Shown piece after piece: positions 3,219 through 51,024 of a stretch of DNA of 51,108 nucleotides (positions are counted from its first letter, which is position 1; each line of letters opens with the position of its first letter). Origin of the DNA: a bacterium (lineage in GTDB: Bacteria > Bacillota_I > Bacilli_A > RF39 > UBA660); assembly GCA_963589235.1 (NCBI GenBank), contig CAVAJX010000038.1:1-51108 (forward strand), written 5' to 3'. Made by a program: the position numbers and the translations under genes. The notes under the pieces are model-generated. The model made no database searches and was not told where the DNA came from. It worked only from the letters and a program-made list of their open reading frames with translations.

Positions 3219-4034
3219 ATGTTAAAACTGACTGAAAATATAGAAGTTGATATAATTAATTTAATTCTTCCTGTAATATATATATTAATAGGAATGGTAA
3301 TCTACAAAGTCTTAAAAAGAATTATTGATAGAAGTATAAACATAGAAAGAATAACTTTAAAATCACATAAACAAAGAGCAGAAACAATAAAAATGTTAAT
3401 ACTAAATATAATTAAATACATAACAGTAATATTAGTATTATTAGCAATTCTTTCTAACTTTGGAATAAACGTTAAGTCAATTTTAGCAGGATTAGGAATT
3501 ACAACTGCCATTATTGGTTTAGCCTTCCAAGACTTAGCAAAAGACTTAATAGCAGGTATTTCAATAATTACTGAAAATCAATATGAAGTAGGAGATACCA
3601 TAGAAGTAGATGGATTCATGGGAGAAGTTGTATTTTTAGGTCTAAAAACAACAAAGATTAGAGACTATAAAGGCGCAACAAAAATAATAGCAAATCACAA
3701 CATGGATAAAATAATTAATTATAGTCTACATGACTCATTAGCTGTAGTAGATATAGGAACAAGCTATGAAAATACAACAGAAGAAATAGAAAAAGTATTA
3801 ACTGATTTAGCAACTAATCTAAAAGGAAAAATAAAAGATGCCACTGGTGACATTGAAATTTTAGGAATAAATAGACTTGCAGACTCAGCTGTTGAATATC
3901 GAGTTACTGTACCAGTAAAACCTATGAAACAGTTTGCAACCGAAAGATTCTTACGCAAAGAAATTAAAGATGCCTTTGATAAATCAGGAATAAATATCCC
4001 ATATCCACAAATAGAGGTGCACAATGGAAAATAA
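3219..4034 (+). CDS. MscS-family mechanosensitive ion channel
   Basis: N-terminal TM helices followed by a beta-domain (GDTIEVDGFMGEVVFLGLKTTKIRDY) typical of small MscS homologs. Confidence 0.8.
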   Translation: MLKLTENIEVDIINLILPVIYILIGMVIYKVLKRIIDRSINIERITLKSHKQRAETIKMLILNIIKYITVILVLLAILSNFGINVKSILAGLGITTAIIGLAFQDLAKDLIAGISIITENQYEVGDTIEVDGFMGEVVFLGLKTTKIRDYKGATKIIANHNMDKIINYSLHDSLAVVDIGTSYENTTEEIEKVLTDLATNLKGKIKDATGDIEILGINRLADSAVEYRVTVPVKPMKQFATERFLRKEIKDAFDKSGINIPYPQIEVHNGK

Positions 4035-4218
4035 AGAATATACAATAGGAACAAAAGTCATCATGAAAAAACAACATCCTTGTGGTGCTAACTCATGGGA
4101 AATAACTAGACTAGGTGCCGACATAAAAATAAAATGTCTAAACTGTGGTAGAACAGTATTAATACCTAGAATTGATTTTAATAAAAAAATTAAGAAAATA
4201 ATTACAGAGGAGGAATAA
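4024..4218 (+). CDS. DUF951-family small protein
   Basis: 64 aa with the HPCG...W...R.GADI..KC..CGR pattern characteristic of DUF951 proteins in the origin region of Firmicutes. Confidence 0.65.
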   Translation: MENKEYTIGTKVIMKKQHPCGANSWEITRLGADIKIKCLNCGRTVLIPRIDFNKKIKKIITEEE

Positions 4219-5894: not shown

Positions 5895-6995
5895 ATGAGT
5901 TTAACAGCTGGAATAGTGGGCCTACCAAATGTAGGAAAATCAACTTTATTTAATGCAATAACTAATCAAAAAATATTAGCTGAAAACTATCCATTCGCAA
6001 CAATAGAGCCAAATGTTGGAGTAGTAACAGTACCAGATGAAAGAATGGATAAATTAAAAGAAATGTATAATCCAAATAGATTTATACCAACAGCATACGA
6101 ATTTACAGATATTGCAGGTTTAGTAAAAGGAGCTTCACAAGGAGAAGGTTTAGGTAATAAATTCCTATCTCACATACGTGAAGTAGATGCCATAGTAGAA
6201 GTAGTAAGATGTTTTGATGATGGAAAAATAATCCATGTAGAAGGAAATATAGATCCAATTAGAGACATTGAAACAATCAATCTAGAACTAGCTATAGCCG
6301 ATTTAGATGTCATTAATAATAGATTAGAACGTGTTGCTAAAAAAGCCCGTACTACAAAGAATAAAGATGATTTACTAGAAGTAGAAGTCCTAGAAAAGTG
6401 TAAAAAAGCCTTAGAAGAAAATACACCAATAAGACAATTAGGCTTAAATGAAGAAGAAAAGAAAATAATAAAGTCTTATAGCTTTTTAACATTAAAGCCA
6501 ATAATATATCTTGCTAATATAAAAGAAAGCGAACTTGGTAATCCAGACAACGAATACGTAAAAGTAGTAAAAGATTATGCTGCTAAAGAAAATGCTAAAG
6601 TAGTTAGTCTTTGTGCAAAAGTTGAAGAAGAGCTAAGTGAACTATCAAAAGAAGATAAAAAAGAAATGTTAGAAGGACTAGGATTAGATGCATCAGGATT
6701 AGATAAATTAATAACCGCAACATATGACATTCTAGGTCTAGCAACATATTTTACTGTCGGAAAAGATGAAGTACGTGCTTGGACATTTAAAAAAGGTATG
6801 AATGCCAAACAATGTGCTGGTATAATTCATACAGATTTTGAAAAAGGATTTATCCGTGCTGAAGTAATTTCATATACTGACTTAATTGAACTTGGTAGTG
6901 AATTAAAAGTAAAAGAAGCAGGAAAAGCTAGACTAGAAGGAAAAGATTATTTAATGCAAGATGGAGATATCTGCCATTTTAGATTTAATGTATAA
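5895..6995 (+). CDS. ychF: Redox-regulated ATPase YchF
   Basis: GIVGLPNVGKSTLFNA P-loop, a TGS-like C-terminus (FIRAEV....GK.YLMQDGDI.HFRFNV) and 366 aa. Confidence 0.95.
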   Translation: MSLTAGIVGLPNVGKSTLFNAITNQKILAENYPFATIEPNVGVVTVPDERMDKLKEMYNPNRFIPTAYEFTDIAGLVKGASQGEGLGNKFLSHIREVDAIVEVVRCFDDGKIIHVEGNIDPIRDIETINLELAIADLDVINNRLERVAKKARTTKNKDDLLEVEVLEKCKKALEENTPIRQLGLNEEEKKIIKSYSFLTLKPIIYLANIKESELGNPDNEYVKVVKDYAAKENAKVVSLCAKVEEELSELSKEDKKEMLEGLGLDASGLDKLITATYDILGLATYFTVGKDEVRAWTFKKGMNAKQCAGIIHTDFEKGFIRAEVISYTDLIELGSELKVKEAGKARLEGKDYLMQDGDICHFRFNV

Positions 6996-17729: not shown

Positions 17730-17764
17730 AAAACCACCTCTAATTATTACAATTATATCAAAAT

Positions 17765-18150
17765 AATGTTTTATAAACAACTTCCTAAAAGAACAAAGGA
17801 CAAATTTTAATTTATAAATTTCAATTTGTCGTTTTTGTTTGGTCGTCACCGATCAAATTTCCTACCTCACAGATAGAGTAATCTCTATTCGCCATAATGG
17901 CTTAAATTCCGACAGTCGCTGCCGTACTAATTCTTTTATTTATAATTTTTTAATTGTTTTGACAAATTATTTATATTACTAGTATTTTTAGTATAACTCA
18001 AATAGGATGTAGTTTGAACTTATCAGCTTTATACATAAAATAACACCTCCATAATCTTATCTTATTATATTACGATGCAAACGTTTGTTTGTCAACGGGT
18101 GAGATTATAAAATTTAAAAAAGTAGAAAGAAAATTCCTTATAAATAAAAA
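17765..18150 (-). mobile_element. Copy A of a miniature IS200/IS605-type (tnpB-deleted) element
   Basis: About 95% identical by eye to 28485-28875 in inverted orientation. Contains a promoter (TTGACA 18090-18095 on -, 17-nt spacer, TAATAT), a micro-ORF at 17998-18036 (-) reading MYKADKFKLHPI*, and a subterminal hairpin at 17799-17830. Confidence 0.6.
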
Positions 18151-18171
18151 AAGTCAATAATATGACCTTTT

Positions 18172-27211: not shown

Positions 27212-28465
27212 ATGAAAGTTATTGAAATAGACGGAGGTCATAAACTAACAGGAAGTATTAGAGTTTCCGGAGCAAAAAATGCAACAGTTGCCCTTATACC
27301 AGCCGCAATATTAACAGATGAAGAAGTAACAATATGCAATGTCCCAGAAATAACCGATACAAATGACCTATGTGCAATATTAAACACATTAAAAGTAGAT
27401 ATAAAAAGAGCGAGTGAAAGTATAATTATAAATCCAAGTAAGATGGAAAACACAGAAATAACTGAAGAATTTTCGAAAAAATTAAGAGCGTCATATTACT
27501 TCATGGGTGCATTACTAGGAAAATATGGAAAAGCAGCTATGTACTTCCCAGGTGGATGTTCTATAGGTGCTAGACCAATAGACTTACACTTAAAAGGATT
27601 TGAAGCTTTAGGAGCAAAAGTAACTGTTGATAAAAATAAATACACAGTAGAAGCAGATGAATTAAAAGGTGCAAATATATATTTAGATATTGCCTCAGTA
27701 GGAGCCACAATAAATATTATGTTAGCAGCCGTAAAAGCTAAAGGTAAAACAATAATAGATAATGCCGCAAAAGAACCAGAAATAGTAAACGTTGCCACAT
27801 TCTTAAATAACATGGGTGCAAAAATTACTGGAGCTGGAACTTCAACAATAAAAATAGAAGGAGTAGATTATCTTCATCAATGTTTTCATGAAGTAATACC
27901 AGATCGTATTGAAGCTGGAACCTACATAATCATTGGTGCTTTATCAGGAGCTCCATTAAAAGTAGATAATATTATTCCAGAACACATTGATTCGTTAATA
28001 TCAAAATTAGAAGAAATAGGTGTTAACCTTGAACTAGGTTCAGATTATGTAATAATTAATTCTAAAGATTCGTATAAATCAACAAATATAAAAACAGCTG
28101 TATATCCAGGCTTTCCAACCGACTTGCAGCAACCATTTACAGTACTTTTAACACAAAGTTCTGGTAAGTCAAAAGTAACTGAAACAATATGGGAAAACCG
28201 TTTTATGCATATCCCATACTTAAATGATTTAGGTGCTGATATTACCGTAAAAAATCAAACCGCAACAATACTTGGTCCAACAAAACTAAAAGGTTGCCAA
28301 GTTGTCGCAACTGATCTTAGAGCGGGAGCTGCCATGATCGCAGCAGGATTAAAAGCCGATGGTAGAACAACAATAACAAATGCCGAACATATTTTAAGAG
28401 GATATGAAGATATAGTTGAAAAACTATCTGAAGTAGGTGCTAAAATAAGAATAAAAGAAATATAA
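27212..28465 (+). CDS. murA: UDP-N-acetylglucosamine 1-carboxyvinyltransferase
   Basis: GSIRVSGAKNA, the active-site Cys loop (FPGGCSIGARPIDLH) and 417 aa. Confidence 0.96.
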   Translation: MKVIEIDGGHKLTGSIRVSGAKNATVALIPAAILTDEEVTICNVPEITDTNDLCAILNTLKVDIKRASESIIINPSKMENTEITEEFSKKLRASYYFMGALLGKYGKAAMYFPGGCSIGARPIDLHLKGFEALGAKVTVDKNKYTVEADELKGANIYLDIASVGATINIMLAAVKAKGKTIIDNAAKEPEIVNVATFLNNMGAKITGAGTSTIKIEGVDYLHQCFHEVIPDRIEAGTYIIIGALSGAPLKVDNIIPEHIDSLISKLEEIGVNLELGSDYVIINSKDSYKSTNIKTAVYPGFPTDLQQPFTVLLTQSSGKSKVTETIWENRFMHIPYLNDLGADITVKNQTATILGPTKLKGCQVVATDLRAGAAMIAAGLKADGRTTITNAEHILRGYEDIVEKLSEVGAKIRIKEI

Positions 28466-28488
28466 TTATATAGTTATATTTCTTTTTT
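28456..28488 (+). terminator. murA intrinsic terminator
   Basis: AGAAATATAA/TTATATTTCT 10-bp stem overlapping the stop codon, followed by T5. Confidence 0.75.
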
Positions 28489-28875
28489 ATTTATAATGGA
28501 TTTTCTTTCTACTTTTTTAAATTTTATAATTTTGCCCATTGACAAACAAATGTTTGTATCGTAATATAATAAGACAAGATTATGGAGGTGTTATTTTATG
28601 TATAAAGCTGATAAGTTCAAACTACATCCTATTTGAGTTATACTAAAAATACTAGTAATATAAATAATTTGTCAAAACAATTAAAAAATTATAAATAAAA
28701 GAATTAGTACGGCAGCGACTGTCGGAATTTAAGCCATTATGGCGAATAGAGGTTACTCTATCTGTGAAGTAGGAAATTTGATCGGTGACGACCAAACGGC
28801 AAATTGAAATTTATAAATTGAAATTTGCCCTTTGTTCTTTTGGAGGAGTTATGAAGTTTATAAAAAAACACTATA
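28485..28875 (+). mobile_element. Copy B of a miniature IS200/IS605-type (tnpB-deleted) element
   Basis: Promoter TTGACA(28539-28544)-17-TAATAT, micro-ORF at 28598-28636, a GC-richer structured block at 28706-28797 and a subterminal hairpin at 28798-28829. Repeated at 17765-18150 (-) and 36889-37256 (+). Confidence 0.6.
28598..28636 (+). pseudogene. 12-codon relic of a TnpB (IS605 OrfB) N-terminus
   Basis: GGAGGTG RBS, then MYKADKFKLHPI*. The paralogous copy C reads (TTG)YKAYKFRLYPI*, matching the canonical KAYKFRLYP start of TnpB proteins. Confidence 0.55.
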
Positions 28876-29594
28876 AACTATTGATAAGTATTTTAGTATG
28901 CCTACTAGTATTTGTAATATTTAAAGAAAACAATAAAAACAACCAAAATTATTTATCATTAGGAGATGGCTTTGCCCTAGGAAAAGATTCATATGGGCAA
29001 GTTGATTATGGTTACAGTGACTATTTAAAAGACTATTTACAAGAAAATGAATATTTAAATAGGTACATAAAATCATTTTCAGCAGAAACAATGTCCATAA
29101 CAGAATTAAAAAGTAAAATAATAGTTAATAAAAAAATAAATATAGGTAATCAAGAATTAAATTTAAAACAAACCTTAAGAGAAAGTACCATTTTAACACT
29201 TTCTATAGGATTAAATGATTTAATTTATCAAATGAGTATAGCCGATAATCTAACAGATAGTAAATTAGATAAAATAATTGCTAATATTGAAAAAGACTTT
29301 AATAGTCTAATTATAGAACTAAAAAAATATTATCAATATGATATATACGTAATCGGATATTACAACATAAATCCAACTAATTACTTTCTAACAACAGGTA
29401 TCAAAAAACTAAATAATATTTATAAAAATAATAAAGACATAATTTATATAGATATATATGAAGACTTTCAAAATAATAAAAATTTTCGTTCTAGAAAGCA
29501 AAATATTTATCCAAATAGACATGGATATCAAGCAATTTCTAATAAAATAATAGATAAAATGGCCAAAAGACTTGAAAAACAAAAAAATAACTGA
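28851..29594 (+). CDS. SGNH/GDSL-family hydrolase with N-terminal membrane anchor
   Basis: A TM helix followed by SLGDGFALG (block I GDS-like) and the C-terminal HGYQAIS pattern. The start is set at the ATG at 28851, after GGAGGAG. Confidence 0.7.
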   Translation: MKFIKKHYKLLISILVCLLVFVIFKENNKNNQNYLSLGDGFALGKDSYGQVDYGYSDYLKDYLQENEYLNRYIKSFSAETMSITELKSKIIVNKKINIGNQELNLKQTLRESTILTLSIGLNDLIYQMSIADNLTDSKLDKIIANIEKDFNSLIIELKKYYQYDIYVIGYYNINPTNYFLTTGIKKLNNIYKNNKDIIYIDIYEDFQNNKNFRSRKQNIYPNRHGYQAISNKIIDKMAKRLEKQKNN

Positions 29595-29654
29595 TATACT
29601 AATAGCGCATTTAATTACTATGACAAACGTTGTCATGGCGGAAGGAGAGATCGT

Positions 29655-33631: not shown

Positions 33632-34363
33632 ATGATTAATTTTATAATATGTGAAGATGAAGATATTTTAGCATCCAAATATATAAATGTAATAGATAAG
33701 TTTATGATGACCAATGATGCTGATTACAAGATTCATAGATATACGGGATATACAAAAGCTTGGGAAAATTATGTTAAAAGCGAAAAAGAATTTAAAATAT
33801 ATATCCTAGATATTAAAACAAAAGAGGGTTCTGGAATAGATGCAGCTAGAAAAATCAGAGAAGAATTTGATGACTGGGTTTCAATGATAATAATTGTAAC
33901 TGCATATTCCGAATATAAATATGAAGCAATGAGTAAACGACTGATGTTAGTAGACTTTATTAATAAGCTGTACGACTTTGAACAAAAATTACAGGAAGCT
34001 TTGTTAATATGTATGAAGCATTATAATAGAAAATTTAAAAGTATAAAATACAACTATCGTAATGTTTCATATAATATTGAATTACGATATATACTGTATA
34101 TCGAAAAAGAGCCTGGCACAAAGAGGAGTAAAGTTAAAACCGTACACGGTGAGTTCTATATCCAAGGTCCATTAGACGATATAATGAAACAACTAGATAA
34201 AAGATTTAGAAAATGTGGTAGAAGTCTAATTATAAATATAGAACAAGTTGAACGTTATAATACAAAATCAAACACAGTAATATTCAATAATAATGAAAGA
34301 TTAACATCTGTACCAAGAGAGAAGAGAAAGGAGTTAGAAAGATATGTTAGAGGTCTTGATTAA
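33632..34363 (+). CDS. agrA: LytTR-family response regulator (AgrA-like)
   Basis: Receiver domain (ICEDE...ILDI) plus a C-terminal LytTR-type domain. Overlaps the downstream kinase gene and lies next to agrBD. Confidence 0.8.
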   Translation: MINFIICEDEDILASKYINVIDKFMMTNDADYKIHRYTGYTKAWENYVKSEKEFKIYILDIKTKEGSGIDAARKIREEFDDWVSMIIIVTAYSEYKYEAMSKRLMLVDFINKLYDFEQKLQEALLICMKHYNRKFKSIKYNYRNVSYNIELRYILYIEKEPGTKRSKVKTVHGEFYIQGPLDDIMKQLDKRFRKCGRSLIINIEQVERYNTKSNTVIFNNNERLTSVPREKRKELERYVRGLD

Positions 34364-35648
34364 ATTTACAAGTGCATTGATGATGGCGTTATCTGGAATA
34401 TATGTCATTAAGAAAATTAGTAATAAGGAAATTAAAATATTAAATGTAAAAACAATGGTTGGAATATTATTGTTATGTATATCATCAATAACAATTTCAA
34501 AAAGTGAATATGCAATGGTGGGAATTATAGCTATTTTTGCATTACAAATTATTGTATATAAAGAAATTTTTGATATAAAATTAGAAGAATCACTAATATG
34601 TTGCGGAATTTTAATGCTATTAGTGTTTATTGGAGACATAATAAGTGTAGTTATTCTTCAAAGATTTGTGGAGATAGAGGAAATGAGGACAGCTGGACCA
34701 ATATATTTACTTGCAAATTTTATGGTATCAGCCTTCATTGCAATAATAGTTAAAATTAAATTCTTACTTCGTCCGTTACAAAATTTCTACAATATCATAT
34801 CAAAGAAACGTTCAGTTTCTAATATGGCATTTATAATTTTGTTAATTATTGGTCTAAGTTCTATTGCTCAAAACATAACAAGAGCCAGTAATCAAAGTAC
34901 CAGTTACTTTGTAAATATTGCCATCATGTTAATATTTTTTGTCCTAGCCGCATTGTTTATCAAAAGTAAAAATAGTTATAATAGATTAAACTCCGAATAT
35001 GAAAGTATGTTTAGTTATGTTCAAAACTTTGAAGACTGGATAGAAAAAGAACAATTAAATCGTCATGAATATAAAAATCAATTAGCTGTTCTACGTTGCC
35101 TAACTAGTGAGAAAAAAGTAAAAGATAAGATAGATGAGATTTTAGAAGACAGTATCAATGTTGAAGGAGAAGTAGTTCACCAACTTAAAACGCTGCCAAA
35201 GGGTGGTATCAAAGGTCTTATGTATTATAAATCAGCTATTGCTCAAAAGAATAAAATTGATTTAACTGTAAATATTAGTTTAGAAGTACATTCAATATTA
35301 TCTAAATTGTCAGAAAAAGAAGCTAAAGTACTATGCCATTTAATAGGAATCTATTTTGATAATGCTATTGAAGCGGCTAAAGAAACTAGAAAGAAAAAAG
35401 TTTTAATAGAAATATATGAAATCAAAGACCATGTTACCTTTGTATTTTCTAATACATTTAAAAAGGCAAAAAACTTTGATGATAGAAATAAGAAAGGTGT
35501 TTCAACTAAAGGAGAAGGCCATGGTAATGGATTATATTACGCTTCAAAATTAATTGCTCAAAACCCTTGGCTAAGTCAAAAACAAGAAGTTATAGATAAA
35601 TATTATATTCAACAAATTATTGTAACACGAAAAAACGACCGTAAATAA
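34344..35648 (+). CDS. agrC: AgrC-like GHKL sensor histidine kinase
   Basis: A multi-TM N-terminus (~200 aa), then an H-box region (NRHEYKNQLAVL) and an ATPase domain (GEGHGNGLYYA). Confidence 0.8.
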   Translation: MLEVLIKFTSALMMALSGIYVIKKISNKEIKILNVKTMVGILLLCISSITISKSEYAMVGIIAIFALQIIVYKEIFDIKLEESLICCGILMLLVFIGDIISVVILQRFVEIEEMRTAGPIYLLANFMVSAFIAIIVKIKFLLRPLQNFYNIISKKRSVSNMAFIILLIIGLSSIAQNITRASNQSTSYFVNIAIMLIFFVLAALFIKSKNSYNRLNSEYESMFSYVQNFEDWIEKEQLNRHEYKNQLAVLRCLTSEKKVKDKIDEILEDSINVEGEVVHQLKTLPKGGIKGLMYYKSAIAQKNKIDLTVNISLEVHSILSKLSEKEAKVLCHLIGIYFDNAIEAAKETRKKKVLIEIYEIKDHVTFVFSNTFKKAKNFDDRNKKGVSTKGEGHGNGLYYASKLIAQNPWLSQKQEVIDKYYIQQIIVTRKNDRK

Positions 35649-35824: not shown

Positions 35825-36433
35825 TTAAATATTTAAAGCCTGAACGTAGGTCTTATAATTATTATATGGTTGACCGAATGCCATATAAAGTAATGGATTT
35901 ATAATAATAGCTTCCACTATCAAAGCTGATAAAATTAATGGTGCTATAAAAGTATCTGAAAATATAAATAACAATATTGAATAAATAATACCTATGAAAA
36001 CGGTAGACCATTTTCTAATTTTTCTTTTTTTCATATTTGGTAATGGTCTTTTTATTGTATCTGCTGGTGCAAAAAAGAAATAACTAACAACACATATGAT
36101 ACAAATAATAAAAACAATATTTTTTGGAATAACAACGTTAATTAAAATATATGGAAGAATAACAAACTGAAATAACGATATAAATAAACACTGTATACTT
36201 TTTTCTGCATGAAAACCAAATCCTGTATAGCGAATGGTATTAAACAGTATCAAAGTAATAATAACCTCTTTTAAAATACCTAACAGTAATGCTGCAATAG
36301 CAATAATTACAAGTTTTGTAATAGTCAGATATATACCTTCAAGTCCATACCTCAATTTTTCTATATCATCATCAGTTAGTTCCTTATAGTTTCCAATAAA
36401 TCTAATAGAAGAATCTAAGAACTTTTTCTTCAT
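35825..36433 (-). CDS. agrB: AgrB-family AIP-processing membrane peptidase
   Basis: RYTGFGFHAEKSIQC matches the conserved R..sGG.HA.....C core; 4-6 TM helices; ~200 aa. Confidence 0.85.
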   Translation of the reverse strand: MKKKFLDSSIRFIGNYKELTDDDIEKLRYGLEGIYLTITKLVIIAIAALLLGILKEVIITLILFNTIRYTGFGFHAEKSIQCLFISLFQFVILPYILINVVIPKNIVFIICIICVVSYFFFAPADTIKRPLPNMKKRKIRKWSTVFIGIIYSILLFIFSDTFIAPLILSALIVEAIIINPLLYMAFGQPYNNYKTYVQALNI

Positions 36434-36661: not shown

Positions 36662-36880
36662 ATGATAGGTCGCGTAAAATGGTTCAATAATGAAAAAGGA
36701 TATGGATTTATTGAATTTAAGGAAGACGAAGATATATTTGTACATTATTCTGCAATAGAAGCAGAGGGATACAAAACTTTATCTGAGGACCAACTAGTAG
36801 AGTTTAAATTAGTAGAAACAAGTAAAGGTTTTCAAGCAATAAACGTTAAACTAGTAAAAGAAGCTACTACTACAAAGTAG
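36662..36880 (+). CDS. Cold-shock protein (CspA family)
   Basis: [15 protein letters not shown] (RNP1) and DIFVHYS (RNP2). Confidence 0.93.
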
Positions 36881-36888
36881 TAGTTTCT

Positions 36889-37256
36889 TATTTATAAGAA
36901 ATTTTTTAAGAATATTATAACTGTGCACTTGAATAATAAGTATATGTACACCATTATAGTAAGAGAAGATTATGTTGGCATATCATTGTATAAAGCTTAT
37001 AAGTTTAGACTATATCCTATTTGATTTATAAAAAAATGTAGGTGTATAAATGGAAGTGTAAAAACATTGTCAAAAGGTCAAAAGAATTATAAATAAAATA
37101 ATTAGTATACCAGCGACTGTAGCAAATTTAACTCATTATAGTGAATAGAGGTTACTCTATCTGGAAAGTGGAAAATTTGATTGACGTTGATTAAAAAAAT
37201 ATAAATAGAAATTTATAAATGAAATTTGTCTTTTGTACTTTAGATGTGTTATAATT
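36889..37256 (+). mobile_element. Copy C (diverged, decayed) of the miniature IS200/IS605-type element
   Basis: Alignable over its whole length with copies A and B, at roughly 65-70% identity by eye. Relic ORF at 36986-37024 reads (TTG)YKAYKFRLYPI*. The ATAGAG-gtta-CTCTAT hairpin is conserved, but the 5' arm of the terminal hairpin is lost. Confidence 0.55.
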
Positions 37257-37875: not shown

Positions 37876-39610
37876 GTGTGCCAGTTCGGTGCTTAATATA
37901 TAGTTAGGTGAAACTCCAAACCTGGTAATCTCTAGCAAAGAGCCAGTATCCAGTCTTGGAGCCAAAATCGTGAGATTAGGTTTAAGCGTAGACAAGAAAG
38001 TGTTTGAGCCGAAATGCAAAAGCGTGAAGTGATGGAGCCTCGTTATTAAAACATTAAATATGGAAGCTTATGTACTCCTTTTTACAGCAAGCAACATTTG
38101 TAATATCGTTAAAGCGAGATATTATGAATTCCATCAGGGTCTAAGAACTTGGCAAGTTCACAAGGTATATTTAAGCATACCTGGGAGAACTTATGGGTTC
38201 CTTAATTCTAAAAGGTTTAAAATCACCAATAGTAAAAGGTATATCAAAGCAAGGTTTTATAAACTAAGCGAGGTAAATGACTTATAAGTAGTCGGACTAG
38301 TTCATAGTAGCGATGAAGTATATGAAAGTATATGGAGTGAAGGGACTAGCATATAAATCGTTTCTCTGATAGAAACATTAATTACACATGGAGGTAATAG
38401 AAAGTGGAAAATGAAAGAGGAGATATAAGAAGTCAATCTATAAAGTATAAGAAACTTCAAATGTTGATGCATCATATCAACAATGAAACATTAATAAAAG
38501 AACATCAAAAGCAAATCAACAATAAAGCGAGTGGAATAGACAAAATGACTAAAGAGAAATACGAAACAAATTTAAACAACAACATAGATGAATTAATACA
38601 AAGAATGAAGTTATTTAAATACAGACCACAAGCGGTAAGAAGAACGTACATACCCAAGGCAAATGAGAAATTAAGACCATTAGGAATACCTGCATATGAA
38701 GATAAACTAGTACAAGGCGTCATGGCAAATATCCTAAACGAGATATACAAACCAAGATTTTTAAATTGTTCATATGGATTTAGACCAAATAGAAATTGTC
38801 ATCAAGCAATAGCAAGCATTAAGAAATCGATAACGACAAAACCAGTCAATTATATATTAGATGCAGATATAAAAGGCTTCTTTGATAATGTAGACCATAA
38901 ATGGATGATAAGATTTCTAGAAAATGATATAGAGGATAAGAACTTTATAAGATACATAGTAAGATTTTTAAAATCAGGTATTATGGAAAAAGGAATTATT
39001 AAAGAAAGCTTAAAAGGAACACCACAAGGTGGATTAATATCACCTATACTAGCTAATGTATATTTACATTATGTACTTGATTTATGGGTAGAAAAATGGG
39101 TAAAACCAAGAGCAAAAGGATATGTAGAAATAGTAAGATATGCCGATGATTTTTTAGTGATGTTTCAATATGAAAATGAAGCCAAATCATTTTATGAGGT
39201 TTTAAAGAAAAGGCAAATACATAGTAAAACATAAAACAAGTAAGAAGAAAATGAAAGCAAAAAGAAAAGAATTTAAAATGTGGATGCGGCAAAATATGCA
39301 TAAACCAATATATGAAACAATGGAAACTATTAAGTGAAAATTAATAGGACACTATAATTATTATGGAATAATAAATCCATATGTGATTATTATATGTATG
39401 TTAAATGGAATACATATAGAATATTAAATAGAAGACATCAAAAGAAAAGTATGTCTTATGAAATATTTAATAGAATATGGATTGGATTTTTAATGCCAAT
39501 ACCACATATTAGAGTAAACATAGGTTAAATCAAAGATTTATATGAAGAGTCGTAAGCCTTAATAGGGCACGTACGGTTCTGTGAGGGACAGACAGACGAG
39601 CCTTTCACTT
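37876..39610 (+). mobile_element. Group II intron (class C-like), degenerate
   Basis: 5' GUGUG at 37876. Canonical domain V at 39547-39579 (GAGUCGUAAGCC..GGGCACGUACGGUUC), followed by a domain VI-like helix. Contains an internal RT ORF. Sits 10 nt after the T-run of a terminator. The 3' boundary is approximate. Confidence 0.8.
38404..39528 (+). pseudogene. Intron-encoded reverse transcriptase/maturase, frameshifted and internally deleted
   Basis: RT blocks are present, including RPLGIPAYEDKLVQ and YADDF. The frame breaks after 39234. Maturase X remnants (KLIGHYNYYGI, ...PHIRVNIG*) appear in other frames. No endonuclease domain. Confidence 0.8.
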
Positions 39611-41760: not shown

Positions 41761-44250
41761 ATGAACCTTTTAAGGAAATTATTCGATCACGAATATAAAG
41801 AAATGAAAAAGTTTACTACTTTAGCAGACAAAGTAATGGCTTTAGATGAAGAGTATTCAAAATTAACAGATACAGAATTACAAAATAAAACAGAAGAGTT
41901 TAAAAATCGTTTAAGAGACGGCGAAACATTAGATGATATCTTAGTAGAAGCATTTGCAACTGCACGTGAAGCTGCATTCCGTGTACTAGGTGAAAAACAC
42001 TTCTATGTACAAATTTTAGGTGGTCTTGCTATCCATTATGGAAATATAGCTGAAATGAAAACAGGTGAAGGAAAAACTTTAACCAGTGTATTACCCGCTT
42101 ACTTAAATGCCTTATCTGGTGAAGGTGTTCACATCATAACAGTAAATGAATATCTAGCAACCCGTGATGCTGAATGGATGGGTAAAATACATGAATTTTT
42201 AGGTTTAACTGTTGGTGTTAATACAAGAGACTTATCTCCTAAAGAAAAACAAGAAGCATACAACTGTGATATTTTATATTCAACAAATAATGAAATTGGT
42301 TTTGACTACTTAAGAGATAACATGGTTGTTCATAAAGAAGACAGAGTACAAAGAAAACTAAACTTTGCCATTATCGATGAAGTTGACTCAGTTTTAATAG
42401 ATGAAGCTAGAACACCATTAATAATCTCCGGTGGTGAAATGAAAAGTGCCAATCTATACATTGATGCAGACCGTTTTGCTAAAAGTTTAAAAGATGAAAA
42501 AGACTATATTTATGATGAAAAAACAAAAAGTGTTAATTTAACGGATGCCGGTTCAGAAAAAGCTGAAAAGACATTTAACATTAAGAACTTATATGAAATA
42601 GAAAATGCAGGGCTTCTACATTACATAAATCAAGCATTACGAGCTAACTACTCTATGAAAAATGATGTTGACTATGTAGTACAAGATGATGAAGTTATAA
42701 TAGTTGATCAGTTTACTGGACGTTTAATGAAAGGAAGAGCTTATTCCGATGGATTACACCAAGCAATAGAAGCTAAAGAGGGTGTAACAATAAATCAAGA
42801 AACTAAGACTCTAGCAACTATCACATTCCAAAATTTATTTAGAATGTATAAGAAATTATCGGGTATGACAGGTACTGCTAAGACAGAAGAAGAAGAATTT
42901 AGAAATATATATAACATGTATGTTATTGAAATTCCTACTAATAAACCAGTTATTCGTGTCGATGCTCCAGACCTAGTTTATGCTACTAAAGAAGCAAAAT
43001 ACAAAGCAATCATAAATTTTGTAAAAGAACGTTATGAAAAAGGACAACCAGTTTTAATTGGTACAATAGCAATTGAAACAAGTGAATTAATAAGTAGTTT
43101 ATTAAAACAAGCAAAAATCCCTCATGAAGTATTGAATGCTAAAAACCATGCTCGTGAAGCTGAAATAATTTCAAAAATCGGTTTAGGCAAATCTGTTACT
43201 ATCGCAACTAACATGGCTGGCCGTGGTACAGATATCAAACTATCAGACGAAATAAGAAATTTAGGTGGATTATGTGTTGTAGGTACTGAAAGACATGAGT
43301 CCCGTCGTATTGATAACCAGTTAAGAGGTCGTTCTGGACGTCAAGGAGATCCTGGTTATACTCAATTCTTCGTTTCAATGAAAGATGACCTAATGGTACG
43401 CTTTGGTTCTGATCGTATCGGTGAAATGATGAAGAACATGGGTCTAGGTGACCAAGCTATTCAAAGTAAAACATTTACTAGGTCAATTGGAACAGCACAA
43501 AAGAGAGTTGAAGGAAACAACTTTGATATTCGTAAACAATTATTACAATATGATGATGTAATGAATAATCAAAGAGAAATAATATATGAAAAAAGAAATA
43601 CTATTTTAGATAGTGATTCAATTCATGAAATGGTATTAAGTTCATTTAGACATCACGTAGAAGACTTAGTAAATTCTCATTTAGCACCAGAAGGAATGCT
43701 AACAGATAATGACTTAAATGAAATAGTAGATTTTGCTAATGAAAATCTATTGAAAAAAGATATTAAGAAAAGTAGTATCTCTGGAATTACAACAGAAGAG
43801 GTAATCGATAAAATTGCACAACAAGTAATAGCTGAATATGAAGAAAAAATCAAAGAGATACCAGAAGAAATAACTGATGAATTCGAAAAAGTTATAACAT
43901 TACAAGTTGTGGATAACTATTGGATGGAACATATCAACACAATGTCTCATTTAAGAGAAGGAATTCACTTAAGAGGATATGCTCAAGAAGATCCATTAAG
44001 AGCTTATACTATGGAAGGGTTTGACTTATTTGACTCTATGCTTCAAAAGATAGATAAAGATATAAGTATCTTCTTATTAAAGGCAGAAGTTCGTCACAAT
44101 GTTGAAAGAAAAACAGTATCAAAAAAACAAATAACTAACGAAAGTGATGAAGGAGTAAAGAAAACTCCAAAGAAGTCAAAAAAAATAGGTCGTAACGATC
44201 CTTGTCCATGTGGCTCTGGTAAGAAGTACAAACAATGCTGTGGTAAATAG
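41761..44250 (+). CDS. secA: Preprotein translocase ATPase SecA
   Basis: The MKTGEGKTL Walker A, the DEVDSVLIDEARTPLIISG DEAD box and the C-terminal SEC-C zinc motif (CPCGSGKKYKQCCGK). Confidence 0.97.
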   Translation: MNLLRKLFDHEYKEMKKFTTLADKVMALDEEYSKLTDTELQNKTEEFKNRLRDGETLDDILVEAFATAREAAFRVLGEKHFYVQILGGLAIHYGNIAEMKTGEGKTLTSVLPAYLNALSGEGVHIITVNEYLATRDAEWMGKIHEFLGLTVGVNTRDLSPKEKQEAYNCDILYSTNNEIGFDYLRDNMVVHKEDRVQRKLNFAIIDEVDSVLIDEARTPLIISGGEMKSANLYIDADRFAKSLKDEKDYIYDEKTKSVNLTDAGSEKAEKTFNIKNLYEIENAGLLHYINQALRANYSMKNDVDYVVQDDEVIIVDQFTGRLMKGRAYSDGLHQAIEAKEGVTINQETKTLATITFQNLFRMYKKLSGMTGTAKTEEEEFRNIYNMYVIEIPTNKPVIRVDAPDLVYATKEAKYKAIINFVKERYEKGQPVLIGTIAIETSELISSLLKQAKIPHEVLNAKNHAREAEIISKIGLGKSVTIATNMAGRGTDIKLSDEIRNLGGLCVVGTERHESRRIDNQLRGRSGRQGDPGYTQFFVSMKDDLMVRFGSDRIGEMMKNMGLGDQAIQSKTFTRSIGTAQKRVEGNNFDIRKQLLQYDDVMNNQREIIYEKRNTILDSDSIHEMVLSSFRHHVEDLVNSHLAPEGMLTDNDLNEIVDFANENLLKKDIKKSSISGITTEEVIDKIAQQVIAEYEEKIKEIPEEITDEFEKVITLQVVDNYWMEHINTMSHLREGIHLRGYAQEDPLRAYTMEGFDLFDSMLQKIDKDISIFLLKAEVRHNVERKTVSKKQITNESDEGVKKTPKKSKKIGRNDPCPCGSGKKYKQCCGK

Positions 44251-44697: not shown

Positions 44698-45891
44698 TTA
44701 ATTATATATTTCTTTTACTCTTGCATAATATATTCTCAAAAATTTATTTAATCCTGCAATTTTAGCTAATGTTTTATTTTTACCTTCTGCTTCTTTTCTT
44801 AACATAAATAGATATACTGCATTATCTGTTTTTGGCCTACAAGACTTAATACTCTTAGTTATTTCATAGCCAACTTTTCTTAAATATTTATTTCCTCGTT
44901 TACTTATATGTCTATTACTTGAATTAAAATTTCCTGATTGATATGGTGGCGCATCTATGCCACAAAATGCTATCAAACAATTAGCATTTTTAAATCTTCT
45001 TATGTCACCAATCTCTGCAATAAGTCTTGCTCTGGTTTTAGGTCCAACACCTTTCATTTCATTAACAATATCAAACTCTTCTAATTGCATTGCAAGTTCA
45101 TCCATTTTTGATATAATATCATTAGTTACTTTTATAGAATTTCTTAAAAGTAATATACAGCTATCAATAGATAGTTGTAATGATTCATTATATGGACATG
45201 AAGTTATTATTGTTGGAGCTTTTGCATAAAGGTTATCTCCAATAATTTTACCAACTTTATGTCTATATTTTTTTGCTATATTATCTATTTCATTAACAAA
45301 TTCTTCTTTAGTTTTTTCTAATACTAAATTTGGATATGAGTATTTTTCATAGATATCCAATAATAATTCATATCTATTTTCTTCATCAACAATACTTTTA
45401 ATTCCAGGAAAAGTCTTATCAATCATATTTGTTAATTGAATTTTTAAACTTGTTTTAATTTTTATATATTGAGTATACTGCCTTGAAAGAAATTGTAACT
45501 GTTCTCTAATTTCATCTGATGGTTCAAATTTTCTTAATTTAAACCATTTATCACTACAATAACTAGCTAATTTTAAAGAATCCTTTCTGTCATTTTTAAC
45601 TTTTCTAAGATCCATATCACAATACTTTTTTATAACTAAAGCATTTTCTACACAAACAAAATAATCTTTTTCAATTAATGAATTTAATATTGGTAAATGA
45701 TAATGTCCTGTGGCTTCCATTAGAAATTTTATTTCTTCTTTATTTATATTTTTTATTTTTGATAATAAAATATCAAATCCTTCTTGATCATGATTAATTT
45801 CAAATGGTTCTTCAACAACTTCGCCTTCTGTTGTAATTATTGAAATTGTACTTTTTCCTTTTGAAACATCAATTCCTACTGCATACATCAA
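44698..45891 (-). CDS. IS110-family DEDD transposase/recombinase
   Basis: MYAVGIDVSKGKS N-terminus (RuvC-like DEDD domain). The C-terminal domain has GVGPKTRARLIAEIGDIRRF and FCGIDAPPYQSGN. Confidence 0.92.
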   Translation of the reverse strand: MMYAVGIDVSKGKSTISIITTEGEVVEEPFEINHDQEGFDILLSKIKNINKEEIKFLMEATGHYHLPILNSLIEKDYFVCVENALVIKKYCDMDLRKVKNDRKDSLKLASYCSDKWFKLRKFEPSDEIREQLQFLSRQYTQYIKIKTSLKIQLTNMIDKTFPGIKSIVDEENRYELLLDIYEKYSYPNLVLEKTKEEFVNEIDNIAKKYRHKVGKIIGDNLYAKAPTIITSCPYNESLQLSIDSCILLLRNSIKVTNDIISKMDELAMQLEEFDIVNEMKGVGPKTRARLIAEIGDIRRFKNANCLIAFCGIDAPPYQSGNFNSSNRHISKRGNKYLRKVGYEITKSIKSCRPKTDNAVYLFMLRKEAEGKNKTLAKIAGLNKFLRIYYARVKEIYN

Positions 45892-47175: not shown

Positions 47176-48195
47176 ATGGATAATAAATTAATTGGAAATG
47201 AGAAAAATATTTTGTTCTATAATGATGAAGAAGGAAATACAAAAGTAGAAGTACTATTAGAAAATGAAGATGTTTGGTTAAATGCCGAGGCATTAGCAGC
47301 ACTTTTTAATATTGATAGAAGTGGAATTGTAAGACATATTAACAATATTTATAAAGATGAAGAGCTAGATGAAAATAGCACATGTGCAAAAATTGCACAT
47401 ATGGGTAATGTTGGTAAGCAAACTTACAATACTAAGTATTATAATCTTGATATGATTATTTCTATTGGATTTAGAGTTAACTCTAAAAAAGCAATTAAAT
47501 TTAGAATTTGGGCAAATAAAATAATTAAAGATTATATGGTTCAAGGTTTTGCTTTAAATGATGAAAGATTTTTAAAAGCAAAAAAATCTGATCAAGAGTA
47601 TTTTAAAAGATTACTTGAAAGAATTAAATTAATTCGTACAAGCGAGAGAATGTTTTATCAAAAAATTACTGATATATTTGCTGAATGTTCTATTGATTAT
47701 GATAAAAATAGTGATACTGCAATAACTTTTTATAAAACTATTCAGAATAAATTTCATTATGCAATTACTGGAAACACTGCTGCTGAAATAGTTTATAAAA
47801 GAGTGGATTCTACAAAAGAAAATATGGGACTTACTACTTGGGAAAAATCACCTGATGGAAAAATTTTAAAATCTGATGTAATTATTGCCAAGAACTATTT
47901 AAATGAACAAGAAATTAAAAATTTAAATAATTTAGTAAACTTATTTTTGGATATCGCTGAAAATAATGCAGAAAGAAGTATAACTATGTATATGGAAGGT
48001 TGGAAAAATGAAGTAGAAAATGCCTTAAAAGTTTTTCATTATGAAGTTTTAGAAGGAAAAGGAAAAATCTCACATAAACAAGCAGTCGAAAAAGCGGAAA
48101 ACGAATATGAAAAATATAAAATTATACAGGATAAAAATTATGTGTCAGATTTTGATAAACTATTAAGAGAAACAAAGCAAATTGAAAATAAATAA
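47176..48195 (+). CDS. rhuM: RhuM-family protein (paralog 1)
   Basis: WL....LA.LF......I..HI.NIY...EL...STC, YYNLDMIISIGFRVNSK and ..F..LL.RI..IR.SER.FYQK are characteristic of the RhuM family. Roughly half of the residues are identical by eye to the product of 50014-51024. Confidence 0.8.
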   Translation: MDNKLIGNEKNILFYNDEEGNTKVEVLLENEDVWLNAEALAALFNIDRSGIVRHINNIYKDEELDENSTCAKIAHMGNVGKQTYNTKYYNLDMIISIGFRVNSKKAIKFRIWANKIIKDYMVQGFALNDERFLKAKKSDQEYFKRLLERIKLIRTSERMFYQKITDIFAECSIDYDKNSDTAITFYKTIQNKFHYAITGNTAAEIVYKRVDSTKENMGLTTWEKSPDGKILKSDVIIAKNYLNEQEIKNLNNLVNLFLDIAENNAERSITMYMEGWKNEVENALKVFHYEVLEGKGKISHKQAVEKAENEYEKYKIIQDKNYVSDFDKLLRETKQIENK

Positions 48196-48402: not shown

Positions 48403-48462
48403 ATGGGAGTACAAAGTTCTTGTGACTCTGGTAAGAAATATAAACAATGTTGTGGAAAGTAA
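48403..48462 (+). pseudogene. Relic of a SEC-C zinc-motif C-terminus
   Basis: Reads ...SSCDSGKKYKQCCGK*. Upstream, the same frame contains stops and DN(T/I) repeats. Confidence 0.45.
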
Positions 48463-49784: not shown

Positions 49785-49856
49785 ATGCACTTAACATTTT
49801 GGAAAGATGATCCAAGTTCTTTTGAATATAGCTTAAAACAATGCTGTGGAAAGTAA
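49785..49856 (+). pseudogene. Second relic of a SEC-C-type C-terminus
   Basis: Reads ...FWKDDPSSFEYSLKQCCGK*. Its last 24 nt and stop match the relic at 48439-48462, with one mismatch. Confidence 0.4.
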
Positions 49857-50055: not shown

Positions 50056-51024
50056 GATGGAATGACAAAAATAGATGTAAAACTTGAAGATGAAACAGTA
50101 TGGTTATCACAACAACAAATGGCAGAATTGTTTTCGACATCTAGAACAAATATTATTGAACATATAAATAATATTTATGCTGAAGAAGAATTGGATAAGA
50201 ATTCAACATGTCAAAATTTCCGACAAGTTCGAATAGAAGGTAATAGAACAGTAAATAGAGAGATTCCATATTACAATTTAGATATGATTATTTCTTTAGG
50301 ATATAGAATAAAATCAAAAGTTGCTACTAATTTTAGAAGATGGGCGACTGAAAGATTAAAAGAATATATGATTAAAGGCTTCACCATGGATGATGAAAGG
50401 CTTAAAGGTAACGGAGGCGGCAATTATTGGAAAGAATTGCTTGCAAGAATTAAAGATATAAGATCATCTGAAAAGGTATTATATAGACAGGTTCTTGATT
50501 TGTATGCGACTGCTGTAGATTATAATCCTAAAGACAGTAAATCAATTGAATTTTTTAAAATTGTTCAAAATAAACTTCATTATGCTGCCCATGGACATAC
50601 AGCACCTGAAGTAATATATGAAAGGGCAAATTCTGATAAACCTTTTATGGGATTAACTACTTTTAAAGGTGATTTGCCAGTAATGAGTGATGTTATAATT
50701 GCTAAAAATTATTTAAAAGAAGAAGAATTAAAAATTTTAAATAATTTAGTATCTGGATATTTTGATTTTGCTGAAATACAAGCAATTAGACATAATCCAA
50801 TGCATATGGATGATTATATTAAACAATTGGATACAATCCTTTCTAGTACTGGAGAAAAGTTACTTACTGGTGCAGGTGCAATTAGTCATGATAAAGCAAT
50901 AGAAAAAGCAAAAGATGAATATAAGAAATATCAAGTAAAAACAATAAGTCCGGTGGAAAAAGAGTATTTAGAAACTTTAAAAGCAATAAGTAATAAAATT
51001 GGTAATAAAGCAAAGAATGAATAG
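50014..51024 (+). CDS. rhuM: RhuM-family protein (paralog 2)
   Basis: Same family signature as 47176-48195 (YYNLDMIISLGYRIKSK, IKDIRSSEKVLYRQ). Confidence 0.8.
   Translation: MEENNNNIVIYQTDDGMTKIDVKLEDETVWLSQQQMAELFSTSRTNIIEHINNIYAEEELDKNSTCQNFRQVRIEGNRTVNREIPYYNLDMIISLGYRIKSKVATNFRRWATERLKEYMIKGFTMDDERLKGNGGGNYWKELLARIKDIRSSEKVLYRQVLDLYATAVDYNPKDSKSIEFFKIVQNKLHYAAHGHTAPEVIYERANSDKPFMGLTTFKGDLPVMSDVIIAKNYLKEEELKILNNLVSGYFDFAEIQAIRHNPMHMDDYIKQLDTILSSTGEKLLTGAGAISHDKAIEKAKDEYKKYQVKTISPVEKEYLETLKAISNKIGNKAKNE

Follow-up and report, generated by a model that had tools for sequence, protein, structure and literature searches.

The intergenic region between murA (27212-28465) and a GDSL/SGNH-type hydrolase gene (ATG 28851) of contig CAVAJX010000038.1 (assembly GCA_963589235.1; the stretch of 51,108 nt analysed here is hereafter termed the window) contains a small mobile element, copy B. 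As judged from alignments with related genomes, copy B is a non-autonomous internal-deletion derivative of a tnpB-only (IS1341-type) element of the IS200/IS605 family, resembling palindrome-associated transposable elements (PATEs) and miniature inverted-repeat transposable elements (MITEs); by the same comparison, its sister copies A and C are derivatives of this PATE/MITE-like class. Copy B directly follows the T-run of the murA terminator and ends 13 nt before the hydrolase ATG. It retains the left end, the tnpB promoter and ribosome-binding site (RBS), about 21 N-terminal codons and the last 6 codons of tnpB, the omega-RNA scaffold in full (~128 nt) and the hairpin of the right end. That this deletion element is a source of guide RNA served in trans by TnpB and TnpA is the best explanation and, in our judgement, a probable one.

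Consistent with a PATE/MITE-like nature, both ends of the parental insertion sequence are present, copies are dispersed and share one internal structure, and there is no intact protein gene. The largest open reading frames (ORFs) of copy B are a 12-codon micro-ORF on its own strand and a mechanical ORF of 47 aa on the minus strand (28652-28795), neither of them an intact protein gene. All the sequence features listed for this unit in the initial annotation were found in place, and the unit itself stands; its limits, originally set at 28485-28875, were refined to those given in Table 1.

The assignment is based on full-length relatives. When one genome per species was scanned for the 21-nt hairpin block, 24 loci emerged, all in metagenome-assembled genomes (MAGs) of gut Bacilli (Candidatus Onthousia faecavium, "uncultured Bacilli" and some doubtfully named bins), with up to ten copies in one MAG and many copies at contig ends. 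In 9 of the 24 loci the block lies directly 3' of a coding sequence ending in ...RNWTCLNCGCENDRDINASINIMFEGLRIHCQNS and a stop codon, the zinc-finger/RuvC C-terminus of TnpB, and two loci (L004 and L016) comprise complete elements of ~1.38 kb. The proteins of these two elements (376-377 aa) contain the domains HTH_OrfB_IS605 (PF12323), OrfB_IS605 (PF01385) and Cas12f1-like TNB (PF07282). TnpB of L004 aligns end to end with ISDra2 TnpB (E=5.6e-64) and carries the DLG, E and DRD catalytic motifs. Positions 28474-28663 match the left end and first tnpB codons of L004 (81% identity over 192 nt), and positions 28663-28812 match its last tnpB codons and right end (89% over 156 nt). The deletion junction falls at about 28663/28664, with ~1045 bp lost relative to L004. 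The earlier proposal, namely a non-autonomous derivative with an internal deletion in which promoter and omega-RNA/right-end module survive but a nuclease in cis is missing, is thus borne out by related genomes, where full-length tnpB elements matching both ends occur.

The remains of tnpB itself can be read across the junction. The micro-ORF MYKADKFKLHPI (28598-28636) opens with ATG and ends at a stop; translated through two stops, the relic continues to ..VILKILVI and aligns to TnpB residues 1-21. The C-terminal relic shares the frame of the micro-ORF, indicating that the deletion was in-frame, and the complete reading MYKADKFKLHPI-stop-VILKILVI-stop-IICQNN-stop corresponds to MYKAYKFRLYPNTSQKILINK...RIHCQNS-stop of TnpB. 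The tail ...NTSNINNLSKQLKNYK, previously taken for a TnpB remnant, does end with a stop at 28698 but is in the wrong frame for TnpB; the homologous tail is IICQNN (28664-28684). The relic peptide of copy B gave no match to Pfam, and that of copy C (YKAYKFRLYPI) matched positions 1-12 of PF12323 with an E-value of 0.042, below the threshold.

The sequence TTGACA-17 nt-TAATAT upstream of the relic ranks highest among the promoter-like sites of the region. Such matches are frequent in DNA of 29% GC (7 found versus 4.8 expected), and by themselves the hexamers carry little weight; TTGACA, the 17-nt spacer and a -10 box of the TAnnAT type are also conserved in the full-length elements L004, L055, L065 and L066. 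The palindrome located inside the spacer is conserved in mini and full-length copies, including L012, where it reads GCAAAT..ATTTGC with two compensatory changes, and its stem resembles that of the right-end hairpin (GACAAATT..AATTTGTC). It is presumed to be the hairpin recognized by TnpA on single-stranded DNA. The left-end relative of the right hairpin had been sought at 28519-28537, a segment poorly conserved among the copies, and this placement is replaced by the conserved palindrome at 28542-28557. Subterminal hairpins with related stems are present at both ends and have the same orientation (the right stem being G(G/A)CAAATT..AATTTG(C/T)C at 28798-28829), and hairpins are kept at both ends in other subfamilies despite sequence change. 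The element termini, TTTATAA... and ...CTTTGTTC, are not inverted repeats.

Downstream of the tnpB relic lies a block (28706-28797) with a GC content of 44.6%, versus 19.5% for positions 28485-28705 and 28.9% for the window, a value reached by only 0.6% of 92-nt windows. It forms part of a scaffold region that follows the tnpB stop codon in L003, L004, L007, L009, L015-L017, L022, L023, L055, L065, L066 and L072-L087; in more than 20 full-length loci this region starts 25-45 nt 3' of the tnpB stop and ends at ...TTTGTTC, where the flanks diverge. From the fetched loci 37 distinct right ends were collected and their core was parsed explicitly into helices, RNAalifold on a plain MAFFT alignment having missed P4 and P5 owing to indels. 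The pairing test covered helices P1-P4 (25 pairs, 23 distinct sequences), with a structure derived in part from the same sequences: 95.3% of cells were paired, a level reached by none of 500 shuffles, and compensatory changes on both sides were seen at 7 pairs, which was matched by one shuffle in 500. The covariation score was 0.202 versus 0.117, and pairing dropped to 29-55% in controls with slid partners.

The P4 loop is always of the GNRA type in intact copies (GUGA, GUAA, GCAA or GCGA), which points to constraint at the RNA rather than the DNA level. The P5 stem changes entirely in sequence between subfamilies, with the hairpin kept; in copy B it has the long form, carrying a 15-nt internal duplication relative to L004 and to L020, a locus with the orthologue of copy B. 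The scaffold variants of copy B also adjoin tnpB genes in L007 and L087. The segments GAAU (28725-28728) and GUUC (28834-28837), both almost invariant, could pair in a pseudoknot-like manner; no covariation was found for this pairing of the junction J1/2 with the tail, and the variants in L015, L065 and copy C break it rather than compensate. The RNA fold of the whole unit could not be distinguished from that of shuffled sequences (z=-1.3). In the Rfam search of the window the element had no match at the gathering threshold, and with E-values up to 10 only chance matches to miRNA and Sib families appeared over 28300-29000. The scaffold pattern had 0 matches in viral contigs; the 30 matches there to the left-end 18-mer were rejected as chance, since none aligned to the element.

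Two observations on variant scaffolds may be added. In the comparison of copy B (28664-28837) with its orthologue (L020, 3340-3504), the indels are an AT bulge in P2, the 15-nt longer P5 and a CAAAAA linker, exactly those separating the subfamilies of the element, in genomes ~95% identical. Such a pattern would fit gene conversion between copies better than point divergence. A different derivative is located in L006 (CALVUN010000007.1, ~6000-6400 of the locus, minus strand). Its left end has the promoter and hairpin (TTGACAAACAAATGTT), and of the scaffold it retains helices P1-P3, P1 bearing two compensatory changes. Its middle is unrelated, P4 is different, and the right-end hairpin and TTTGTTC tail are absent.

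The limits of the insertion were derived from sites lacking the element. None was present among the loci fetched first; they were found after a look-up of hydrolase homologues. Three related species keep the murA-hydrolase arrangement without the element, with a gap of 34-37 nt, and the murA hairpin and T-run are also found in the empty sites L091, L092 and L094. Empty sites read ...TTATATTTCTTTTTA/TTTTGGAGGTACTTATG, and the filled site of the window reads ...TTATATTTCTTTTTTA (TTTATAATGG...CCCTTTGTTC) TTTTGGAGGAGTTATG, with the element in brackets. The window sequence ...CTTTTT(T)A-element-TTTTGGAGG thus corresponds to ...CTTTTTA-TTTTGGAGG in the empty site L094, and insertion was scarless, after a T-rich motif. 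The candidate transposon-adjacent motif (TAM) is accordingly T-rich, either TTTTA (28485-28489) or, with a one-base slide of the boundary, TTTAT. Because of the flanking T-runs, the empty sites alone allow the boundary to slide by up to 3 nt; comparison with the right flanks of other insertions, which vary, leaves 0-1 nt. No clear target duplication was seen; a T duplication of 1-3 nt would be compatible with the empty-site evidence taken alone.

The same comparison corrects the view that the element supplies the RBS and start codon of the hydrolase gene: both are host sequence, since the empty sites in relatives carry them. The right flank is the presumptive guide/target segment of copy B, 16-20 nt in length, and the host segment to the right of the element that is the candidate target of TnpB reads TTTTGGAGGAGTTATGAA. 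A flank co-duplicated with copies A and B had also been proposed in the initial annotation. The right flanks (17730-17790, minus strand, and 28838-28880, plus strand) are indeed weakly alike, sharing TTTT.GGA.GTT..GTTTATAAAA, but the similarity is marginal and the co-duplication unproven: the score of 14, versus 7.8 +/- 2.0, is reached by 0.8% of random and 3.8% of RBS-like windows. The likeness could be due to chance in AT-rich DNA or to a short co-transferred flank.

Independent insertions all follow a T-run plus A or G. The left flanks of full-length and mini elements alike almost always consist of a hairpin and a run of 6-8 T, i.e., the tail of an intrinsic terminator (L004, L005, L016, L055, L066, L072, L074 and L078; in the window, 18145-18170, 28454-28489 and 36866-36890). 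Their mean fold energy is -6.5 kcal/mol, versus -2.5 kcal/mol for random 39-mers (p=2e-6, to be taken as indicative only, some of the 19 flanks being the same site in several samples and two being false anchors). The family therefore lands on terminator tails, which would suffice to account for the co-orientation of both full-length and mini copies just upstream of the next gene.

A profile search of the window with nhmmer found exactly three copies (E=4e-29, 2e-27 and 1e-16). The repeat of the unit extends over 17769-18151 on the minus strand, with 93% identity over 389 bp, and over 36902-37241, with 73.5% identity. Copy A is situated after the hairpin and T-run of a gene for a small membrane protein and 61 nt upstream of a LemA-like gene (ATG 17729); copy C is placed between the terminator of cspA and hpf. 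In copies A and B the promoter, RBS, left-end hairpin, scaffold helices, GNRA loop and TTTGTTC end are all intact. Copy C is decayed, with a promoter of 8/12 by inspection, 3/6 pairs in the left-end hairpin, 4/6 pairs in P1, an ACGU loop in P4 and the end TTTGTAC, and it is probably inert. The 400-nt spacing between cspA and hpf is filled by copy C in all nine arrangements shown, 23 contigs carrying the identical Hpf protein.

Other mini copies were found in L001, L005, L008, L012 and L020. One deletion junction and a stop at codon 13 are common to copies A, B and C and to those of L005, L008, L012 and L020, located at different sites and in several MAGs, from which we infer that a single ancestral deletion product later spread. 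The copy in L001, from another MAG, is 98% identical to copy A. Full-length and mini elements coexist in CAVIUA01 (L004 and L017 full-length, L008 and L020 mini) and in CAVKYO01 (L009 and L023 full-length, L001 and L012 mini), and a stretch of 8 kb (L020), in a MAG with a full-length element, is syntenic with the window at 95.4% identity. In the orthologue of copy B on this stretch the -10 box no longer exists (TAATAT has become CAATAA), and a change of one base affects the -35 box and hairpin.

The way in which such an element could operate follows the published TnpB/TnpA mechanism (PMC10055086, PMC8612924). The retained tnpB promoter would transcribe an RNA of ~270 nt through the scaffold into the right flank. 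The 3' end of this RNA would carry a guide corresponding to the flanking host sequence, as known for TnpB and omega-RNA (PMC10097598, PMC10055086), and the guide of copy B would be TTTTGGAGGAGTTATGAAGT. TnpB produced by a full-length copy elsewhere in the genome could bind this RNA in trans, and a Y1 TnpA, also acting in trans, could excise the mini element, restoring the empty site of TAM plus target. TnpB would then cut the restored site, and recombination with the sister chromosome would restore the element. The mini element is thus most likely a hitch-hiker on both transposon proteins.

Several points weigh against this explanation. No full-length tnpB is present in the 51-kb window, and no Y1 tnpA lies beside the looked-up elements, a crude regular-expression scan of 375 kb of related DNA for HUH and W..[GS]Y[FY] being likewise negative. 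Rfam has no family for the scaffold, whose structure was drawn in part from the sequences on which it was tested. Copy C is degenerate, yet the spacing that it occupies stays filled in all nine arrangements shown; the L020 orthologue of copy B is only 92.3% identical to it, versus 95-98% for the flanking genes, and its damage and divergence fit neutral decay rather than a maintained function. Finally, the transcription of copy B, the position of the RNA 3' end and the loading of TnpB are steps that we infer. At least some copies are decaying neutrally, since the L020 orthologue has lost its -10 box and part of its -35 box and hairpin and diverges faster than its flanks. The same observations could mean that all copies are inert fossils, derived from TnpB elements, with no usable guide transcription, TnpB service or mobilization, and persisting because deletion is slow. 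This reading is favoured by the defects of copy C in the promoter, left-end hairpin, P1, P4 loop and terminal motif at a site still filled in the nine arrangements, by the losses in L020, and by the failure to find tnpA in any fetched locus. It is at odds with the intactness of copies A and B from promoter to TTTGTTC end, with the intact TnpB genes in sister MAGs, and with signs of recent spread, namely the 93% identity of A and B at sites 10 kb apart and the 98% identity of L001 to A. Overall, it is considered unlikely.

According to another reading, which appears distinctly unlikely, the copies are exapted mobile promoters or leaders, kept because the tnpB promoter reads out and drives or boosts the hydrolase gene, the LemA-like gene and hpf. 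Each of the three copies is oriented like the gene that follows it, at a distance of 13-61 nt. Copy B ends 13 nt before the hydrolase ATG, and its promoter is the sole promoter-like site from the murA terminator to that ATG. Scoring for terminators gave none at the right end, and read-out is in any case expected, as an omega-RNA must extend into the flank. Full-length tnpB elements, however, show the same position and orientation, which a T-rich TAM in terminator tails explains without selection, and relatives keep the gene arrangement without the element, with the short murA-hydrolase gap mentioned above. The promoter is damaged in the L020 orthologue and in copy C, and both the LemA-like gene and hpf have extended -10 boxes of their own in the flank. 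A more specific idea, which seems improbable at present, is that the TnpB family homes on the T-tails of terminators, so that a cassette of outward-reading promoter and guide RNA would come to lie immediately before the next host gene, and that gene-less copies have been co-opted as terminator-bypassing promoters or as sources of guides with which a TnpB encoded in trans would police or regulate the hydrolase start. It arises from copy B, where the guide would span the Shine-Dalgarno sequence and ATG and the only upstream promoter candidate lies in the element. The suggestion that the block has nothing to do with transposition and is a cis-regulatory or independent small RNA of the host (such as a leader, riboswitch or TldR-type guide for a nuclease-dead regulator) is hardly credible. 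A structured block richer in GC, with its own promoter, upstream of genes would suit such an RNA, but Rfam gave no match even at E-values up to 10, the three downstream genes are functionally unrelated, and the associated TnpB keeps its catalytic motifs, unlike TldR proteins. This reading was rejected because an identical block forms the 3' end of intact tnpB genes.

The extended -10 boxes downstream of copies C and A are located at 37226-37255 on the plus strand (TGTTATAAT) and at 17751-17779 on the minus strand (TGATATAAT), respectively. The best -35 partner of the hpf box, TTGTCT with an 18-nt spacer, lies inside the right-end hairpin of copy C, so that a hybrid promoter is possible.

Elements that rely on TnpB in trans and encode only an omega-RNA have been published, and copy B is an ordinary, well-resolved example in an uncultured gut lineage. 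In Geobacillus stearothermophilus, minimal PATE-like IS200/IS605 elements "often encode omega-RNAs" that need TnpB in trans (Meers et al., 2023; PMC10055086); the PATE concept originates from Haloquadratum (PMC3119063). Like the Geobacillus elements, copy B is gene-less, bounded by the left and right ends of a TnpB insertion sequence, provided with an omega-RNA and presumably dependent on TnpA and TnpB, and such copies coexist with full-length ones in the same genomes. Unlike them, it belongs to gut Bacilli (Candidatus Onthousia-like MAGs, 29% GC), is known here from sequence, and shows in-frame tnpB remains (21 N-terminal and 6 C-terminal codons) together with the promoter and RBS. Because these in-frame remains persist, origin by a single deletion can be read directly.

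The omega-RNA of ISDra2 from Deinococcus radiodurans has a scaffold of 116 nt, which extends as far as the right end, and then a guide of 16 nt (PMC10097598). In comparison with ISDra2 (PDB 8BF8/8EXA/8H1J; PMC10097598, PMC8612924), the scaffold of the copy B family is ~120-128 nt long and is likewise located at the 3' end of tnpB and the right end, with a small hairpin, a short tail and then a flank-derived guide. The GAA(U)/(G)UUC pairing of J1/2 and tail lies at the pseudoknot site of ISDra2, a likeness of position without covariation. The helix layouts do not correspond one to one, and the window copies have no protein. ISDra2 includes tnpA and uses the TAM TTGAT, whereas the copy B family is tnpB-only with a T-rich TAM of about TTTTA or TTTAT. 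The relatives L004, L016, L055, L065, L066 and L072-L086 have the organization of IS1341-type elements: left end, tnpB and right end, with subterminal hairpins, no tnpA, no inverted repeats and no target duplication. Unlike such members, the window copies are deletion derivatives and do not encode TnpB. Guide RNAs of TldR and other domesticated TnpB proteins (PMC10705468) are similar in that the scaffold, of TnpB type, does not adjoin a gene for an active nuclease. TldR proteins, however, resemble TnpB but are nuclease-dead, and their guide is directed at a promoter. In the present family the transposon ends are intact, the partner TnpB retains its catalytic residues and the "guide" is the insertion flank.

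The element explains a repeated, structured, promoter-bearing intergenic unit that has no name in RNA and protein libraries, as well as the assembly breaks at this repeat in these gut Bacilli. It also calls for caution in annotation: the micro-ORF should not be called a gene, nor the block a riboswitch. The in-frame tnpB remains illustrate how a PATE can arise from a TnpB element through a single deletion. Pairs of filled and empty sites define where the element ends and suggest a T-rich TAM for a TnpB closely related to the editing enzyme ISDra2 TnpB, and the compact ~120-nt scaffold could help in mining for TnpB/omega-RNA pairs. The targeting of terminator tails combined with promoter delivery to downstream genes would, if true, be the more interesting angle.

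Table 1. Coordinates of the mini elements in the window and of the parts and flanks of copy B.
Feature	Position	Strand	Remarks
Mini element copy B	28490-28837	+	348 bp; limits from L004 alignment, empty sites, right-flank comparison and the three window copies
Mini element copy A	17791-18144	-	354 bp; 93% identical to copy B
Mini element copy C	36891-37238	+	348 bp; ~73% identical to copy B
Host flank, left	28454-28489	+	murA terminator-like hairpin AAAGAAATATAA / TTATATTTCTTT; T-run 28483-28488; A 28489
Former tnpB promoter	28539-28567	+	TTGACA 28539-28544, 17 nt, TAATAT 28562-28567; 10/12 match
Left-end subterminal palindrome	28542-28557	+	ACAAAC-AAAT-GTTTGT; inside promoter spacer; -4.1 kcal/mol
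tnpB RBS and 5' relic	28584-28663	+	GGAGGTG 28584-28590; relic matches TnpB residues 1-21
tnpB 3' relic	28664-28684	+	IICQNN-stop, in micro-ORF frame; L004 C-terminus ...RIHCQNS-stop
Omega-RNA scaffold region	28710-28837	+	Same block after tnpB stop in full-length loci; covariation
P1	28710-28724	+	CGGCAG/CUGUCG
J1/2	28725-28733	+	GAAUUUAAG
P2	28734-28740 with 28769-28773	+	CC..UAU/GUAGG; encloses P3
P3	28746-28761	+	AUAGAG/CUCUAU (ATAGAG-GTTA-CTCTAT)
P4	28777-28796	+	8 bp; GUGA loop 28785-28788
P5, right-end subterminal hairpin	28798-28829	+	GGCAAATT...AATTTGCC; -9.4 kcal/mol; followed by CTTTGTTCTTTT
Tail	28830-28837	+	CUUUGUUC
Right flank	28838-28857	+	TTTTGGAGGAGTTATGAAGT; host sequence; covers Shine-Dalgarno 28842-28848 and hydrolase ATG 28851

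Several other features of the window and of the fetched loci were recorded. Immediately 3' of hpf, the plus strand matches group II intron domains D1-D4 (37911-38149; RF02005, 132.6 bits). After this match, a 276-aa ORF (38404-39234, plus strand) contains only the RVT_1 domain, and the intron-encoded protein looks truncated or split. The arrangement of hpf, group II intron and RVT_1 is found in all contigs with an identical hpf gene. An agr-like quorum-sensing module, located just upstream of cspA and copy C, comprises a LytTR regulator (33632-34363), a GHKL histidine kinase (34344-35648) and AgrB (35825-36433) on the minus strand. A 397-aa ORF (44698-45891, minus strand) encodes not a TnpB but an IS110-family transposase (DEDD_Tnp_IS110 and Transposase_20) and is a second, unrelated mobile element. 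In L068, the gene for an ABC-ATPase downstream of a full-length element contains a run of N (3990-4100) with a duplicated flank, an assembly scaffold gap of no biological meaning.

A ribosomal-protein leader of the L31-Firmicutes type (29618-29647, plus strand; RF03156, 34.2 bits, just above threshold) precedes rpmE. A C-terminal motif of the CxSGKKYKQCCGK type (SEC-C-like) occurs at 44204-44249, 48416-48461 and 49810-49855, in an 829-aa ORF, which we take to be probably SecA, and in two smaller ORFs. At the 3' end of the window, paralogous blocks 73-92% identical to each other are located at 47437-48001 and 50269-50815.

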